Assembly (NCBI GenBank): GCA_964566795.1
Contig: CAZMIU010000001.1
Coordinates: 150,764-214,763, forward strand
DNA length: 64,000 nucleotides
Direction: 5' to 3'
DNA from: an uncultured Candidatus Saccharibacteria bacterium
GTDB taxonomy: Bacteria > Patescibacteriota > Minisyncoccia > Phycocordibacterales > SBAW01
Each line of letters begins with the position of its first letter. Position 1 is the stretch's first letter. The notes beneath the pieces are model-generated. The model did not search any database. It was given only the letters and a program-made list of their open reading frames with translations, and was not told the DNA's origin. The position numbers were made by a program, and so were the translations under genes. Shown piece after piece: positions 25,223 through 49,450 of this stretch.

Positions 25223-26278
25223 CTATTTCACAAGCGTGAATGCTCCGTCTTTGCCGCGTTTGAAATATTTCTGGTTCTGGAGGTTGACCACAATCGTGCC
25301 CGGCTTAACATGGCGCTCTTTGAGCACCTCCTTAACTATCTCGTCGCGGGTCATGGGGCCGCTCTTGCGCAGTATGTCGCGGATAACGTCGCGCACGACG
25401 CCAGTGGTGTAGCCCCACTCCTTAAGCGCGTACATGCCGCGGCCCACCAGGACAAAGCGGTCATCCTTAATAAGCTCGTTGTGGGTAGTGGCCACGTGTG
25501 CGGCGCGGTTAAACATCTTCTCAATCAGGCCCGACACCTCGCGGAAGTGGAGCGGAGAGCCGTGCTTTTTAACTGCCAGGTAGGCGTAGTCGCGGATACC
25601 CTTGGTCTTAACGTTTTGGGAATGTGCCTGGCCCCACTCGCCCAGGGGGTTTTTACCTATACCCTTTGAGATTGCAAGCCAGCGGCGCAATACCTCCTCG
25701 TTGCGGTGCTTGTCGTTAAGCGTCTGGAGCTCCTTGAGAAAGCGGTCTATCATCTCGCCCTCCGGGATAAGGTCCTCGTCAGAGAGGCCGGAGTAGAGCG
25801 ACTTGAGCGCTCCCTCCACCTTCTGGGCCAAGTCGGGGTCTACATACCAGCAGCGGTTAACCTCATCATCCTCCTTGCGGAATTTAAACGGGTCTCCCAA
25901 AACAAGCAAAAAATAGATGTGGTTCTGCATCGACTTGTCCTTGGTCATAAAATTGAGCAGGTCGTCCTCGCAGACAATGCCGCCCAGACCGTCGATGATG
26001 CGCTCGAGCTCCTCAAATGCGTCCTGTGCCCCGCCAAACGCCGGCGACTTCTTAAGGGCGCCAAGTGCATGGTTCTCAATCTGGCGAACACGCTCGCGGG
26101 TTATGCCGTAGCGCTTGCCGATGGCCTCCAGCGTTACGCGCTCGGGAGAGTCACCCAGCCCAAAGCGGGCCTCAAGCACGGTGCGGGAGCGCTCTGGGAG
26201 CGAGGCAAGAAGCTTTTTGACAATTGCCTTAGGCTTAAAACCTGTCTTGTCCGCCGTGGAAGTTGATGAGGGTGCCAT
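25223..26278 (-). CDS. Hypothetical DNA-binding protein: N-terminal sigma-70 region-4-like HTH plus C-terminal winged-helix-like domain
   Basis: Residues about 30-80 (TVLEARFGLGDSPERVTLEAIGKRYGITRERVRQIENHALGALKK) are a textbook sigma70_r4 motif, but at the N-terminus. There are no region 2 or 3 motifs. Confidence 0.55.
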   Translation of the reverse strand: MAPSSTSTADKTGFKPKAIVKKLLASLPERSRTVLEARFGLGDSPERVTLEAIGKRYGITRERVRQIENHALGALKKSPAFGGAQDAFEELERIIDGLGGIVCEDDLLNFMTKDKSMQNHIYFLLVLGDPFKFRKEDDEVNRCWYVDPDLAQKVEGALKSLYSGLSDEDLIPEGEMIDRFLKELQTLNDKHRNEEVLRRWLAISKGIGKNPLGEWGQAHSQNVKTKGIRDYAYLAVKKHGSPLHFREVSGLIEKMFNRAAHVATTHNELIKDDRFVLVGRGMYALKEWGYTTGVVRDVIRDILRKSGPMTRDEIVKEVLKERHVKPGTIVVNLQNQKYFKRGKDGAFTLVK

Positions 26279-26340: not shown

Positions 26341-29151
26341 TCAAGCAACCACAAGCGTCACTATTTTGCCCTTAACATAGAGAGCTTTTTGCTCCTGTTT
26401 GCCCTCAAGCCACTTGCCCGCTGCAGTGCGGGCCTGGGCCAAAATCGCCTCCTCCGTATCGCTCAGATTGACAGAAATAGTGGCACGCACCTTGCCGTTA
26501 ACCTGCACAGCAATGGTTGCAGTATCTGCCAGCAGCCTCGACTCATCGTACGCAGGCCACGAGGCACAAGAGACTCCATAGAACTCTGCAAGCTCCGAGG
26601 CCATGTGCGGCGCAAGCGGATGCAAAAGCTGTATAAATGTGGCATACGAGCCCTTTGGTACCCCCGCCTCATCAAGCTCCTTAAGCGCGATCATGAGCGC
26701 CGATATGGCGGTGTTAAACTTGAGAGCCTCGAGGTCCTCTGTCACCTTTTTGATCACAGGGTCCATGACAATGTCCAAGGCGTCTGTTGGCTCGAGCCTC
26801 CAGACTTTGTCTAAAAAGCGGCGGATGCCAAGAATATTTTTGGTGCTCCACGGCTTCATGGTCTCAATCGGGCCCATAAACATCTCATACATACGCAGTG
26901 TGTCTGCGCCGTACTCTTTAACCACATCATCTGGGTTAATAACGTTGCCCTTGGACTTGCTCATCTTGCTGCTATCCTCGGCCAAAATGATGCCCTGGTG
27001 CCTGAGCTTTTTAAACGGCTCGCCAAAGCTTATTACCCCATGCTTTTGGAGTGCTTTAGTAAAGAAGCGCGCGTACAAAAGGTGGAGCACCGTGTGCTCG
27101 GCGCCGCCCATGTAGAGGTCCACAGGCAGCCAGTTTTTGACCGCCTCTTTGCCCGCAAATTCCTTGTCGTTGCGCGGGTCGGCAAAGCGGTAGTAGTACC
27201 ACGAGGAACAGACAAACGTGTCCATGGTATCAATCTCCGGCCGCCAGCCTTTGCCAAAGATGCGCTCGGTGCGCTCCAAGAGCTCCTTGGACTGCCCCAA
27301 GGGCGAGGTCCCCGTGGGCTTAAACTCTACATCGGTGGGCAGCATCCAGGGCAAATGCTCCTCCGGCACCGGGTGTGCGGTACCCTCCGGGTCGTAGACC
27401 ACCGGTATAGGCGCGCCCCAGTAGCGCTGGCGCGAGATAAGCCAGTCGCGAAGGCGGTAGGTTTTGACCATCTTCCCTCCTACTGCCTCGGTAATCTTTT
27501 TCTTGGCCTCCTCGCTCGGCATGCCGCTAAACTCTCCTGAGTTTATTAGCACACCCGGTCCGGTATAAACATCCCTGCCGGTTTGGACTCTCTCCCATAG
27601 CATCCAAAATTCCGCATGCTGCATGTGCACAGACTCTATCTCTTTGGGCGAAAGCCACTCAACATCGTATTGATCACTCTCCTCTACTGTTACGGGCACT
27701 CGAGTGTCATCTACGAGCTCAAATAAAAAGTGCTCTCCGTGTGTTTGCCGGTTTACATCTTTATGCGCCGCGAAGAAAAAGGCTTCTGTCTCCAACAGGC
27801 TGCGGACAAGACGGATATTCGTGTATCCTGTTTCTTCTGCAATCTCGCGCTTGGCGGCCTCAAGCTTGTCCTCGCCTTCCTCTACCCCGCCCGTAACAAA
27901 CGTGCGCCACCCTGTCTTCTTCCACTTGAGCGTCAGATACTTGTCTGCTTTCGGGTCATAGACTATCGCCAGGATCATGTTGCGCCTGGTATTTTCTTTT
28001 CCCCCGCGCGGCGGGTTGGTCTCATCTACAAGACTCGGCATTACAACTCGCACTATCGGAATATTAAATTTTTGGGCAAACTCGTAGTCGCGCTCGTCGT
28101 GCGCGGGTACGGCCATAATGGCGCCGGTGCCGTACGTCGAGAGCACGTAGTCAGCTATGAAAACTGGAATCTCTTCACGGGTTGCAGGGTTAATGGCCTT
28201 GATGCCCTTAAGCTCGACGCCTGTCTTTTCGCGGCCCTCGGCAGAGCGGTCTATGTCTGACTTATCTTTGGCCTCTTTGGCGTATGCCTCCACTTCATCC
28301 CAGTTGGTGATAGAGGTTTTTAGCTCCGTGACCAAACCATGCTCGGGAGCTACCACCATGTAGGTTGCCCCATAGAGCGTGTCGGGGCGGGTGGTAAATA
28401 CGGTAATTTTTTTGTCGCTGTTTGATATATCAAACACTATTTCAGCCCCTTCACTGCGGCCTATCCAGTTGCGCTGGTTAATTTTGGTAGACTCGGGCCA
28501 GTCTATCTGGTCCAGGTCATCATGGAGCGCGTCGGCAAACTCGGTAATCTTAAAAAACCACTGCTCGAGGTCTTTTTGTATAACCTTGGTGCCGCAGCGA
28601 ACGCACACGCCCTTCTCCCCGCTCTCGGACACTGTCTGCTCGTTGGCGAGCACGGTCTGGTCTTTGGGGCACCAGTTGACCTTTGCAAGCCGCTTGTATG
28701 CGAGCCCGTTGTTGTACAAAAAGAGGAAGAACCACTGCGTCCACTTGTAGTACTCGGGGGTGTGCGCGCCTATCTCGCGATCCCAGTCGTAGGACAGCCC
28801 GAGGCTCTTTATCTGGCGGCGAAAGTTGCCGATGGCGCGGCCGGTGGTCTCCTGCGGTGGCACACCGGTCTTTATCGCGTAGTTCTCGGCGGGCAGGCCA
28901 AACGCGTCCCAGCCCATGGGGTGCATAACGCTTAAGCCCTGCATGCGCTTAAACCGGCTATAGATGTCGGTGGCTGTGTAGCCCTCCACGTGGCCCACAT
29001 GCAGGCCATCTCCTGAGGGATATGGAAACATGTCGAGCACGTAGAGCTTTTTTGAAGTATCTCCTGAGTCGGGTGCGGCAAATGCTTTGGTCTGGTCCCA
29101 ATGGTCCTGCCACTTTTTCTCAATCGAGGAGTGGTCGTATTTGCCTTTCAT
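26341..29151 (-). CDS. leuS: Leucyl-tRNA synthetase with an inserted Nudix hydrolase domain
   Basis: HIGH (HVGHVEGY), editing-domain TTRPDTLYGATY and KMSKS motifs. Residues about 385-500 contain the Nudix box GGVEEGEDKLEAAKREIAEETGY (GX5EX7REUXEEXGU). Confidence 0.95.
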   Translation of the reverse strand: MKGKYDHSSIEKKWQDHWDQTKAFAAPDSGDTSKKLYVLDMFPYPSGDGLHVGHVEGYTATDIYSRFKRMQGLSVMHPMGWDAFGLPAENYAIKTGVPPQETTGRAIGNFRRQIKSLGLSYDWDREIGAHTPEYYKWTQWFFLFLYNNGLAYKRLAKVNWCPKDQTVLANEQTVSESGEKGVCVRCGTKVIQKDLEQWFFKITEFADALHDDLDQIDWPESTKINQRNWIGRSEGAEIVFDISNSDKKITVFTTRPDTLYGATYMVVAPEHGLVTELKTSITNWDEVEAYAKEAKDKSDIDRSAEGREKTGVELKGIKAINPATREEIPVFIADYVLSTYGTGAIMAVPAHDERDYEFAQKFNIPIVRVVMPSLVDETNPPRGGKENTRRNMILAIVYDPKADKYLTLKWKKTGWRTFVTGGVEEGEDKLEAAKREIAEETGYTNIRLVRSLLETEAFFFAAHKDVNRQTHGEHFLFELVDDTRVPVTVEESDQYDVEWLSPKEIESVHMQHAEFWMLWERVQTGRDVYTGPGVLINSGEFSGMPSEEAKKKITEAVGGKMVKTYRLRDWLISRQRYWGAPIPVVYDPEGTAHPVPEEHLPWMLPTDVEFKPTGTSPLGQSKELLERTERIFGKGWRPEIDTMDTFVCSSWYYYRFADPRNDKEFAGKEAVKNWLPVDLYMGGAEHTVLHLLYARFFTKALQKHGVISFGEPFKKLRHQGIILAEDSSKMSKSKGNVINPDDVVKEYGADTLRMYEMFMGPIETMKPWSTKNILGIRRFLDKVWRLEPTDALDIVMDPVIKKVTEDLEALKFNTAISALMIALKELDEAGVPKGSYATFIQLLHPLAPHMASELAEFYGVSCASWPAYDESRLLADTATIAVQVNGKVRATISVNLSDTEEAILAQARTAAGKWLEGKQEQKALYVKGKIVTLVVA

Positions 29152-29224: not shown

Positions 29225-30154
29225 CTAATTCCTCAAGACCGGATACAGGTCCTTGTCTACCGCGCGGTTAAAGCAGGTGTGGCCCGCGGGATGGTCCCAG
29301 TTTTCATTGCCATAATACGGCTTGGCATACGAAGCCTGCTGCGTGCGGCTCTCTGTGGCAAAAGTGGCACACAACTCAAACGACGGGGCGCTTGCGCTGG
29401 TGTTCTCGTATTCATAGTCTGCACCGCTCACTGGGTCCTTAGGCAAGGTGAAGTACGACAGCGGGTCGCTGAGCGCCTGGAGGTTAGGAGGGAGCTCGCC
29501 CTTCTTCTGCCAGTAGTTTATTACCTCCGACTGGATCATCTGGAGGTCTGAGACGCGCTGGTCGTCAAGGCGCTGCTGGCGTGCCTCCTGCGGAGTGCCG
29601 ATGATAAAGAACCCGGAGACAATAGTGAGCACAATAAGTGCCGCCACGGCCCAGGTAACCGAGCGCGCGAGCCCCGGGTTTTTTGTCCAGTAGCCCCAGA
29701 GGTCGGCCATAAAGTGGAGAAACCCGGCACCCGCCACAAGGAGTACTACAAGCACCTTGAGAAGGAATGCGGCTGTAAGCTCCTCGCCATTGAGGAAGGT
29801 GGTGATAAGCACAATAAGGTCTATAGCAACTGTGGCACCCGCTATAAAGAGCGTGAGGTATAGCGCCCAGCGGCGCACCCAGACGTTGGCCCTTGATGCA
29901 TCATGTGCAATGCTGCGCCTGATTACGCGCATAAGGATAAGGCACAAAGGTGCAAGCACAATGAGCGACGCCATCTCATACGCAACACTCCCCTGGTAGG
30001 GGTTGCCGTAGTAATAGTAGTCGAGCACGTTGGGGAGCGCGTAGTTTATGTAGTCAAACAGAAGCCCTATAAACGCGATGACCGCGCCATACAACGAGAG
30101 CATGGCACCCGCCCACAAAAAGAAGTCCTTCGGCGTCGCTTTAGCTGTATCCAT
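29225..30154 (-). CDS. Hypothetical polytopic membrane protein (about 6 TM) with C-terminal soluble domain
   Basis: Hydropathy pattern only; no family recognised. Confidence 0.5.
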   Translation of the reverse strand: MDTAKATPKDFFLWAGAMLSLYGAVIAFIGLLFDYINYALPNVLDYYYYGNPYQGSVAYEMASLIVLAPLCLILMRVIRRSIAHDASRANVWVRRWALYLTLFIAGATVAIDLIVLITTFLNGEELTAAFLLKVLVVLLVAGAGFLHFMADLWGYWTKNPGLARSVTWAVAALIVLTIVSGFFIIGTPQEARQQRLDDQRVSDLQMIQSEVINYWQKKGELPPNLQALSDPLSYFTLPKDPVSGADYEYENTSASAPSFELCATFATESRTQQASYAKPYYGNENWDHPAGHTCFNRAVDKDLYPVLRN

Positions 30155-34799: not shown

Positions 34800-34966
34800 T
34801 GCCAGTGCAGGATATCACTCCGGCCTCCACCTCGTGGTCAGGCGTTCAAAATCGCCGTCGCGATTTTGCCGCACGACCCTGCCTCGCGGTTTTGCCAGTG
34901 CAAAACATCGCTCCGGCTTCCACAAAAGCAGAAAACCACCCGCAGGGGTGGCTTTTCTGTCTTTTG
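34800..34966 (-). repeat. Conserved tRNA-Ala 3'-flank, copy A (terminator hairpin plus ~90 nt shared with 49341-49450, with an internal ~35-nt tandem duplication)
   Basis: About 87 nt are identical to the sequence downstream of the tRNA-Ala(TGC) at 49268, in inverted orientation. It contains the hairpin gccacccctgcgggtgg followed by ttttctgcttttgtgg. Confidence 0.7.
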
Positions 34967-35039
34967 TGGACCCTACCGGGATCGAACCGGTCACCTCTTC
35001 CATGCCATGGAAGCGCTCTACCAAATGAGCTAAGGGCCC
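34967..35039 (-). tRNA. tRNA-Ala (anticodon GGC)
   Basis: Cloverleaf folded by hand: acceptor GGGCCCT/AGGGTCC with G3:U70, anticodon loop AUGGCAU, T-loop TTCGATC, 73 nt, no encoded CCA. Confidence 0.8.
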
Positions 35040-43903: not shown

Positions 43904-43974
43904 CGGGATGTGGTATAATGGTATTACGTACGCTTCGGGTGCGTATAATCCGAGTTCGATTCTCGGCATCCCGA
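43904..43974 (+). tRNA. tRNA-Pro (anticodon CGG)
   Basis: C1:G72, discriminator A73, anticodon loop UUCGGGU, T-loop TTCGATT; 71 nt. Confidence 0.75.
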
Positions 43975-44010
43975 CTAAGTTTCCGACAAAATAAAAGAGG
44001 GTGTGTAGCC

Positions 44011-44131: not shown

Positions 44132-44202
44132 GGGCCCTTAGTTAAGTGGTACAACGGTGCATTCGCATTGCACAGGCGCGAGTTCGATTCTCGCAGGGTC
44201 CA
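44132..44202 (+). tRNA. tRNA-Ala (anticodon CGC)
   Basis: Acceptor GGGCCCT with G3:U70, anticodon loop UUCGCAU, T-loop TTCGATT, discriminator A; 71 nt. Confidence 0.75.
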
Positions 44203-44227
44203 CTAAACATCTGCTACCATAAGGCGC

Positions 44228-49267: not shown

Positions 49268-49340
49268 GGGCCCTTAGCTCATCTGGTAGAGCGCCTCATT
49301 TGCAATGAGGAGGTGACCGGTTCGATCCCGGTAGGGTCCA
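49268..49340 (+). tRNA. tRNA-Ala (anticodon TGC)
   Basis: Acceptor GGGCCCT/AGGGTCC with G3:U70, anticodon loop UUUGCAA, T-loop TTCGATC, 73 nt, no encoded CCA. Confidence 0.8.
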
Positions 49341-49450
49341 CAAAAGACAGAAAAGCCACCCCTGCGGGTGGTTTTCTGCTTTTGTGGAAGCCGGAGCGAT
49401 GTTTTGCACTGGCAAAACCGCGAGGTGGAGGCCGGACCGGTATTTCCCCT
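49341..49450 (+). repeat. Conserved tRNA-Ala 3'-flank, copy B (terminator hairpin plus ~90 nt shared with 34800-34966)
   Basis: cacaaaagacagaaaagccacccctgcgggtggttttctgcttttgtggaagccggagcgatgttttgcactggcaaaaccgcgagg is identical to the reverse complement of the copy-A flank. Confidence 0.7.

Follow-up and report, generated by a model that had tools for sequence, protein, structure and literature searches.

The window analysed here is a stretch of 64,000 nucleotides (nt) from contig CAZMIU010000001.1 of an uncultured Candidatus Saccharibacteria bacterium, and the subject of this work is a gene on its minus strand that encodes a leucyl-tRNA synthetase (LeuRS) with a Nudix domain inside the CP1 editing domain. 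The features of the gene, with residues numbered along the protein and lengths in amino acids (aa), are as follows.

26341..29151, minus strand: complete LeuRS-Nudix open reading frame (ORF), 936 aa, matching TIGR00396 and identical to database protein P0008
28474..29151, minus strand: N-terminal half of the class I catalytic core, residues 1-226 (Pfam, T. thermophilus alignment)
28990-29001, minus strand: HIGH motif, here HVGH, residues 51-54, with H51, G53 and H54 invariant in the alignment
28054..28473, minus strand: first part of the CP1 editing domain, residues 227-366 (PF13603 profile 1-144), containing TTRPDT (253-258), which is the T-rich region, and AHDERD (350-355), to which the editing aspartates D352 and D355 belong
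27556..28053, minus strand: inserted segment, residues 367-532, bounded by the conserved anchors ...KFNIPI and GVLINSGEF
27571-28041, minus strand: Nudix module proper, residues ~371-527
27823..27891, minus strand: Nudix box GGVEEGEDKLEAAKREIAEETGY, residues 421-443, an exact fit to GX5EX7REUXEEXGU, with the catalytic and metal-binding residues E427, R435, E436, E439 and E440
27748..27780, minus strand: X-loop and subfamily signature FFFAAHKDVNR, residues 458-468
27454..27555, minus strand: part of the CP1 editing domain after the insert, residues 533-566 (GVLINSGEF...YRLRDW; Pfam, T. thermophilus alignment and the continuous editing domain of protein P0011)
26887..27453, minus strand: second half of the catalytic core, residues 567-755 (Pfam, T. 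thermophilus alignment)
26953-26967, minus strand: KMSKS motif, residues 729-733
26446..26757, minus strand: anticodon-binding domain, residues 799-902 (PF08264, 45.2 bits)

With the TIGR00396 (leuS_bact) model the whole protein reaches 944.5 bits (cutoff 548.4), in a match that the insert breaks into two stretches, and a Pfam scan of the 936-aa protein finds the LeuRS editing domain (PF13603, 218.3 bits), the class I core, the anticodon-binding domain and NUDIX. The HIGH and KMSKS motifs, TTRPDT, GTG (341-343), D352 and D355 were found to be invariant or nearly so in 75 relatives, both fused and unfused. For the LeuRS body, the ratio of nonsynonymous to synonymous substitution rates (dN/dS) against a close relative is 0.06-0.12. 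The gene has a conserved neighbourhood (YchF, DUF5671, LeuRS and a Sigma70_r4/HARE-HTH protein, with YceG and MnmA further on), which is common to relatives with and without the insert. The intact motifs, the conserved syntenic locus and the dN/dS of the body identify the gene, as far as sequence can tell, as the housekeeping LeuRS of a Paceibacteria-type candidate phyla radiation (CPR) bacterium, and exclude a decayed paralogue.

In family and domain order the protein is the same as canonical bacterial LeuRS (T. thermophilus 1H3N/2BYT; E. coli 4AQ7/4ARC), that is, a Rossmann core with HIGH and KMSKS, CP1 with its T-rich region and Asp residues, and the anticodon-binding domain (716.7 bits to 1H3N). 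It differs from the T. thermophilus (Tt) enzyme in that a 156-residue Nudix domain stands for the 13-residue loop Tt 363-375, and in that ~594-632 is absent. The latter stretch of 1H3N is the leucine-specific domain region, lying between the core and KMSKS; the HMMER alignment skips there from Tt 593 to Tt 633 across a few window residues (around 724-729).

An earlier note on this DNA, made from the letters alone, had placed the insert after CP1, ahead of the return to the core, and had put its length at about 120 residues. Both points have to be corrected. The PF13603 editing-domain profile is broken at position 144 of 185 and CP1 picks up again at GVLINSGEF, so that the insert lies inside CP1. 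The extra length is 152 residues, the protein having 936 aa against the 784 aa of P0011, the closest insert-less allele, in which the editing domain is continuous (PF13603 1-184/185). The alignment to T. thermophilus LeuRS that the note had proposed as a check, made with 1H3N, pairs residues 4-370 with Tt 3-362 and residues 528-738 with Tt 376-593, and this means that the Nudix module takes the place of the Tt loop named above.

The note's two central claims, an embedded Nudix hydrolase domain in LeuRS and a perfect Nudix box, were on the other hand borne out. Pfam NUDIX (PF00293, gathering score 21.1) matches residues 393-512 with 52.9 bits (E 4.9e-14), the excised insert by itself reaches 57.4 bits, and the box is the sole one of its pattern in the six-frame translation of the window. 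These scores, together with the exact and solitary box, mean that the Nudix domain in LeuRS is real at the sequence level and far beyond chance.

The insert also models as a Nudix fold. In the AlphaFold2 model of the full-length protein (mean predicted local distance difference test score, pLDDT, 90.2; predicted template-modelling score, pTM, 0.80), ten-residue blocks score 92-96 over the insert and both linkers. Modelled alone (pLDDT 94.8, pTM 0.89), the insert has the Nudix strand-helix-strand topology and the alpha/beta/alpha fold of the family. Foldseek with this model returned 531 PDB matches at E<=0.001, and 50 of the top 50 entries are Nudix-family. The top match is 2azw (TM 0.73/0.82), a structural-genomics entry for an Enterococcus faecalis MutT/Nudix protein that is 18% identical and, unlike the insert, free-standing.

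In 163 copies of the subfamily to which the insert belongs, the metal-binding glutamates of the box are kept at 99% (E16), 96% (E19) and 100% (E20), which are E436, E439 and E440 here. Outside the box, the subfamily conserves R390, K464, N467, R468 and W499 (window numbering), with K464, N467 and R468 at 89-99%. Two comparisons give the insert a dN/dS of 0.032 and 0.046, below that of the LeuRS body, and by this measure its protein sequence is strongly constrained by purifying selection. From the conserved metal-binding glutamates and this selection we infer that the insert is catalytically active.

The explanation that we favour, and regard as fairly probable as a whole, is an intact LeuRS with a tethered, exchangeable Nudix hydrolase of nucleoside polyphosphates. 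A self-contained Nudix domain of ~156 residues, a predicted pyrophosphohydrolase, is spliced into a surface loop of the CP1 editing domain. As the aminoacylation and editing sites are untouched, LeuRS would still charge and proofread tRNA-Leu, while the insert would act as a tethered 'house-cleaning' enzyme, cleaving pyrophosphate bonds in free nucleoside 5'-polyphosphates in a Mg2+-dependent manner. Candidate substrates are dinucleoside polyphosphates such as Ap4A, which are by-products of adenylate-forming synthetases, and/or aberrant nucleoside triphosphates (NTPs). The module is not fixed: insert-less alleles and alleles with different ancient Nudix types coexist on near-identical backbones, and the CP1 segment is most simply read as being exchanged between related strains by homologous recombination.

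We now turn our attention to the distribution of the fusion. PF00293 is present in ~75 of the 120 closest LeuRS clusters, a sample picked by similarity to the query, and the named fused members among them are Paceibacterota, Adlerbacteria or Kaiserbacteria. The earlier note had held the architecture not to be standard for LeuRS. This stands in so far as an insert at this CP1 site is absent from all 17 solved LeuRS sequences in the PDB, and hence from the enzymes of model organisms, but it does not hold among the closest Patescibacteria LeuRS, where the fusion is the majority state. A scan of GTDB species representatives gave at least 139 confirmed relatives, and at 78 of the best 80 loci the Nudix module lies within a LeuRS ORF. 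The best 80 cover many Patescibacteria lineages, several metagenome-assembled genomes (MAGs) labelled Bacilli or Bacillota, and one labelled Woesearchaeota. In MAGs labelled Bacilli, Bacillota or Clostridium, LeuRS-Nudix fusions use this CP1 site too, and their box is a different one, GTIKDKETPLECAKREIAEETG ('uncultured Bacilli' MAG loci L030, L031, L040, L041 and L044; further loci L033, L051, L055 and L064).

An exhaustive profile search of 1.84 billion representatives gave 592 clusters at E<=1e-10, of which 173 reach E<=1e-30. For the best 150 subfamily representatives, the host is LeuRS in 114 cases; 23 are free-standing (154-207 aa) and 13 fall under 'other', at least 4 of the latter being LeuRS fragments. 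LeuRS and prolyl-tRNA synthetase (ProRS) were the only non-Nudix hosts found among these 150.

Within LeuRS there are one to three Nudix copies per protein and three or more insertion sites. The late CP1 loop, which is the site used in the window, holds 99 of the LeuRS-hosted copies, and a HAD domain is possible there instead (HAD_2 at residues 387-542 of P0086). Another 20 copies sit at an early CP1 site, where some proteins have Ham1/ITPase or an alpha/beta (Ser) hydrolase (P0036 and P0074 at ~245-394; P0108, P0121 and P0124 at ~240-450), and 5 lie at positions after CP1. Two or three copies are found in 12 LeuRS. They are of different ancient types, 20-46% identical within a protein, and each is nearer to copies in other proteins than to its neighbour, which rules out recent intragenic duplication as their source; the exception is the free-standing tandem P0147, with copies 74% identical. 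The multi-copy LeuRS (e.g. P0141-P0144) show a recurrent order, with the canonical box (GX5E...RE) in one copy and a variant box (GX5Q/D...A/K/Q-E) in the next, which suggests that modules with two different functions are paired in a fixed way.

Outside LeuRS, P0270 is a class II ProRS with a Nudix domain of the same subfamily between its anticodon-binding and C-terminal domains. This ProRS-Nudix architecture comprises five clusters (P0270 and P0288-P0291; 641-674 aa), 61-74% identical to the query, and the named members of the clade are Nanoarchaeota and Woesearchaeota, both DPANN archaea; the other 115 close ProRS are without the Nudix insert. The ProRS Nudix box is atypical (GGQD-NLD...KEIIEETGY). 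Among the free-standing copies, one lies 2 nt upstream of a Nudix-bearing LeuRS. A LeuRS with both Ham1 and Nudix is likewise preceded, at a distance of 37 nt, by another Nudix gene. A further free-standing copy is found between ArgRS and an IleRS-like gene, with thymidylate kinase, dUTPase and a second Nudix close by. In three assemblies P0006 follows MutM/Fpg at a distance of 4 nt, one copy adjoins NDK, and one is within a run of small phosphohydrolases (HAD, low-molecular-weight phosphatase, CYTH). By these searches the Nudix subfamily of the insert is a distinct one, mainly embedded in, or encoded beside, aminoacyl-tRNA synthetases (aaRS).

Some further observations concern these relatives. 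The HAD gene beside the free-standing P0003 and the HAD insert of P0086 are only 28% identical, which is too weak for a shared origin to be argued. The IleRS-like class I synthetase downstream of ArgRS and the free-standing Nudix copy (L093:5094-8498, plus strand; >1184 aa, cut by the locus end) has His_Phos_1 inserted, and its cluster also has a zeta-toxin-like kinase. P0003 (L001:2951-3433, also L023), a free-standing Nudix protein of 160 aa, carries the NCBI name 'leucyl-tRNA synthetase', and P0121, a 1127-aa LeuRS with inserts, carries the name 'alpha/beta fold hydrolase'; both names are probably annotation-transfer errors.

The evidence for exchange of the module comes from comparing bodies and inserts. 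Over 75 fused LeuRS (2,775 pairs), body and insert identity are uncorrelated (Spearman -0.01). The bodies of P0008 and the insert-less P0011 are 92% identical, and in the pairs P0029/P0036, P0044/P0088 and P0021/P0023 bodies 88-92% identical carry inserts just 26-35% identical. On a tree of LeuRS bodies (neighbour-joining only), the insert state costs 57 parsimony changes on 120 tips, compared to a mean of 71 and a minimum of 64 for shuffled states. At the DNA level, the comparison with the insert-less syntenic allele in locus L004 delimits the following tract.

27112..28371, minus strand: recombination tract (gene nt ~781-2040), from DNA identity and synonymous divergence (dS)

The tract consists of the Nudix module and ~100-150 flanking codons per side, with a DNA identity of 70-79% and a dS of 1.5-2.1, whereas outside it, in the flanks and most of the gene, the identity is 90-98% and dS ~0.40. 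A second pair, L063 and L081, has a like tract structure around a swapped insert type. The simplest reading is that CP1 segments with different Nudix cassettes, or with none, are swapped by homologous recombination via the conserved LeuRS flanks. The case for exchange rests on pairs whose bodies are 85-92% identical while one insert is missing or the two inserts are 34-43% identical, and on the tracts in dS and identity. Lateral transfer alone is not a conclusive explanation of pairs whose inserts are more similar than their bodies (P0008/P0049), as dS is saturated throughout and the insert is more constrained than the body within a type. In the clade labelled Bacilli, insert and body co-diverge, unlike the shuffling in Patescibacteria, which points to vertical inheritance there. 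No compensating free-standing copy was found in the 13 kb around the insert-less allele.

As to what the insert acts on, the substrate class is probably nucleoside 5'-polyphosphates, of ApnA and/or NTP type. Between these two the split is about even, and either one taken by itself is a tentative assignment. An ApnA-type substrate is favoured by the ties of the subfamily to aaRS of both classes and by the ApnA hydrolases among the nearest characterised folds, and an aberrant (d)NTP by the MutM, NDK and dUTPase contexts and by the co-inserted Ham1 (ITPase family) and HAD domains. Any coupling to LeuRS is likely one of proximity or co-expression and not obligatory, since nearly identical strains do without the insert.

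Several other Nudix specificities were considered. CoA Nudix enzymes have an upstream LLTxR...FPGG NuCoA motif. ADP-ribose pyrophosphatases have a Pro ~16 residues after the box, and NADH diphosphatases the sequence SQPWPFPxS / SQPWPFPQS (PMC5389931). None of these three signatures is present in the insert. In the NCBIfam scan, the RppH equivalog reaches 29.7 bits against a cutoff of 118, and no MutT equivalog model is above cutoff. Compared to characterised ApnA/NTP pyrophosphohydrolases (T. thermophilus Ndx1, an Ap6A hydrolase; M. tuberculosis Rv2985/MutT1; NudI; human NUDT2; E. coli MutT), the insert is 16-25% identical and below the cutoffs of the family-specific models, and it is embedded in an aaRS where those enzymes are free-standing.

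It is important to point out that a number of observations weigh against a tethered hydrolase of nucleoside polyphosphates. LeuRS is not known as one of the main synthetases that produce Ap4A. The NCBIfam equivalogs for Nudix specificity are all below cutoff, the best being NudB-like with 34 bits against 103, and so are all the Ap4A-hydrolase models in that scan. About one quarter of the subfamily copies carry E7->Q/D and R15->A/K/M in the box, and these variant-box types may have altered chemistry. The near-identical strains that lack the insert mean that the module is dispensable for LeuRS function and that a mechanistic coupling need not exist. The closest structure, 2azw, has its function listed as undetermined (PMC5389931) and thus gives no substrate clue. 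Finally, there is the X-loop, a concept for Nudix enzymes that we take from the same survey. ApnA hydrolases have there, ~17 residues after the box, a conserved Tyr as their signature (Dunn et al. 1999, as given in PMC5389931). At this place the insert has Phe-Phe-Phe, at +15 to +17, and a K-x-x-N-R motif. However, the subfamily consensus in this region is F-Y, with Tyr in many relatives, and an aromatic residue is kept in the window, so that an ApnA function would be plausible despite the Phe.

A stricter version of the ApnA alternative, in line with the earlier note's idea of coupled synthesis and clearance, would have the Nudix domain destroy, in cis, the Ap4A or Ap3A that the same LeuRS molecule makes from Leu-AMP and ATP. 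We consider this possible but doubtful. In addition to the Ap4A-hydrolase models below cutoff and the missing signature Tyr, the co-inserted Ham1, HAD and alpha/beta-hydrolase domains and the MutM, NDK and dUTPase contexts are unrelated to Ap4A and agree at least equally well with a sanitation of the nucleotide pool, and near-identical strains have insert-less alleles. That one free copy adjoins ArgRS also counts against it, since ArgRS forms no adenylate without tRNA.

Likewise doubtful, though possible, is that the insert merely hitch-hikes on LeuRS as a MutT-like pool sanitiser (acting on 8-oxo-(d)GTP, for example) that is functionally unlinked to aminoacylation. The two CP1 loops would tolerate insertions, and fusion to an essential, constitutive gene would secure expression in a minimal genome. 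This would fit the free relative 4 nt downstream of MutM/Fpg in three assemblies and the others near NDK and dUTPase/Tmk, the Ham1 (ITPase), HAD and alpha/beta-hydrolase domains that occupy the same CP1 sites, the variable presence and swapped types of the insert, and the small genomes of the hosts (CPR, DPANN, MAGs labelled Bacilli). However, hitch-hiking predicts varied hosts, while the best 150 representatives show aaRS only (LeuRS and ProRS) and the free copies, too, adjoin aaRS genes. The MutT equivalog models below cutoff do not speak for a sanitiser either.

Another option is that the insert acts on adenylates or on RNA, which we judge unlikely. It would then hydrolyse non-cognate aminoacyl-adenylates as an additional pre-transfer editing step (the earlier note, too, had raised adenylate proofreading), or process or repair RNA ends, by RppH-like removal of a 5'-pyrophosphate, by decapping, or by removing a toxin-added 3'-pyrophosphate from the CCA end of tRNA. 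In favour of this, CP1, in which the insert lies, is where the tRNA 3' end is bound, the insert weakly resembles RppH and decapping Nudix effectors, and its types are swapped as rapidly as is seen for genes under conflict. On the other hand, the RppH models are far under cutoff, the ProRS insertion site is geometrically unrelated to CP1, and the defence models are not significant, with only PDC-S07 at 20 bits. Aminoacyl-adenylates, moreover, are without the diphosphate that Nudix enzymes normally cleave, which counts against their hydrolysis here.

A broader proposal, which we find decidedly unlikely, replaces house-cleaning by a new, conflict-driven layer of translational quality control or repair. 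The Nudix, Ham1, HAD, histidine-phosphatase and alpha/beta-hydrolase inserts would together form a diversifying, recombination-shuffled cassette system in the synthetase editing domains of ultra-small CPR/DPANN symbionts. Its targets would be toxins that mimic aminoacyl-adenylates, tRNA 3' ends modified by toxins (e.g. pyrophosphorylated CCA) or mis-activated adenylates. A defence-system or phage origin of the insert was tried and rejected, as the best PADLOC match is PDC-S07 (20.3 bits, E 8e-5) and PHROGs likewise give generic Nudix similarity only.

It is very unlikely that the insert is a non-catalytic module, that is, a structural, ligand-sensing or protein-binding Nudix fold that modulates LeuRS in the manner of NrtR-type regulators. 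The rough quarter of subfamily copies whose box has GX5Q/D, and something other than Arg ahead of its first catalytic Glu, would be in line with such a role, and the known existence of non-enzymatic Nudix proteins (PMC5389931) also counts for it. The box in the window is, however, fully canonical, and the metal-binding glutamates are kept at 96-100% even in variant types. The dN/dS of 0.03-0.05 for the insert and the existence of free-standing single-domain relatives point the same way.

An artefact or selfish element (assembly chimera, intein/intron, or a mobile element removed before the mature protein) is hardly credible: an insert that some alleles have and others lack, at one exact position of an essential gene, is superficially intein-like, but exchange goes through homologous recombination of CP1 flanks and not precise homing, the linkers are modelled at pLDDT ~92, in-frame recurrence in >100 independent assemblies and 78 GTDB species rules out a chimera, Pfam finds no Hint, LAGLIDADG or HNH and Rfam no intron in the window, and the junctions (...IPIVRVV / ...DVYTGP) have no Cys/Ser/Thr or terminal Asn as for an intein.

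The tethered hydrolase of nucleoside polyphosphates that we favour can also be set beside other known systems. HINT/HIT proteins act on aaRS products, lysyl-AMP being hydrolysed by Hint. They are similar in concept, as small nucleotide hydrolases working on aaRS by-products or intermediates, but unlike the insert they have the fold and chemistry of HIT phosphoramidases/acyl-AMP hydrolases and are not covalently fused. The NCBIfam family NF040702 (isoleucine--tRNA ligase, N-acetyltransferase domain-containing) is likewise a bacterial class Ia synthetase with an extra catalytic domain, and is the nearest catalogued precedent met with in this analysis. It combines IleRS with GNAT and not LeuRS with Nudix, and the window protein, with 73 bits against a cutoff of 1999, is no member. 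No curated LeuRS-Nudix model surfaced in the NCBIfam scan.

Targeted full-text literature searching found no description of a LeuRS-Nudix architecture, and the 2017 survey of the Nudix clan (PMC5389931) nowhere mentions tRNA or synthetases. Public records of the fused proteins bear the plain name leucine--tRNA ligase (e.g. UniRef A0A1F4Y1K9). From these database entries and the empty literature search, the architecture has apparently been deposited publicly but neither described nor studied. The component families are known; their combination and its behaviour are new.

The remaining features of the window are the two flanks of LeuRS and the tRNA genes.

25223-26278, minus strand: 351-aa protein with Sigma-70 region 4 and a weak HARE-HTH match, on one flank of LeuRS
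29225-30154, minus strand: DUF5671 protein, on the other flank
34966-35039, minus strand: tRNA gene
43904-43975, plus strand: tRNA gene
44132-44203, plus strand: tRNA gene
49268-49341, plus strand: tRNA gene

The tRNAs are three tRNA-Ala isoacceptors (GGC, CGC, TGC) and a tRNA-Pro (CGG), and there is no tRNA-Leu near LeuRS. Antisense to LeuRS, at 26389-28935 on the plus strand, there are several ORFs of 81-180 aa, which are most likely by-products of a coding sequence of 56% G+C and not genes.

The aaRS are among the best-studied enzymes, and yet a second, unrelated and probably catalytic domain, undescribed by the searchable literature, lies within the CP1 of LeuRS in many uncultivated species. 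LeuRS-Nudix is a widespread lineage feature and no singular oddity. In practical terms, the fusion family accounts for misnamed records, with a 160-aa Nudix protein entered as LeuRS and a LeuRS as an alpha/beta fold hydrolase. The near-random scatter of insert types over the LeuRS tree clearly exemplifies how an essential gene can recombine at the level of its domains. If the insert should be an Ap4A-type hydrolase, it would be a natural covalent link between synthesis and degradation of a long-debated alarmone, and the matched natural alleles with and without the hydrolase, on backbones 92% identical, would allow direct tests. If it should be a pool sanitiser, minimal-genome symbionts (CPR, DPANN) would be packing house-cleaning enzymes into essential genes, and the two CP1 loops would be usable as engineering sites for domain insertion.

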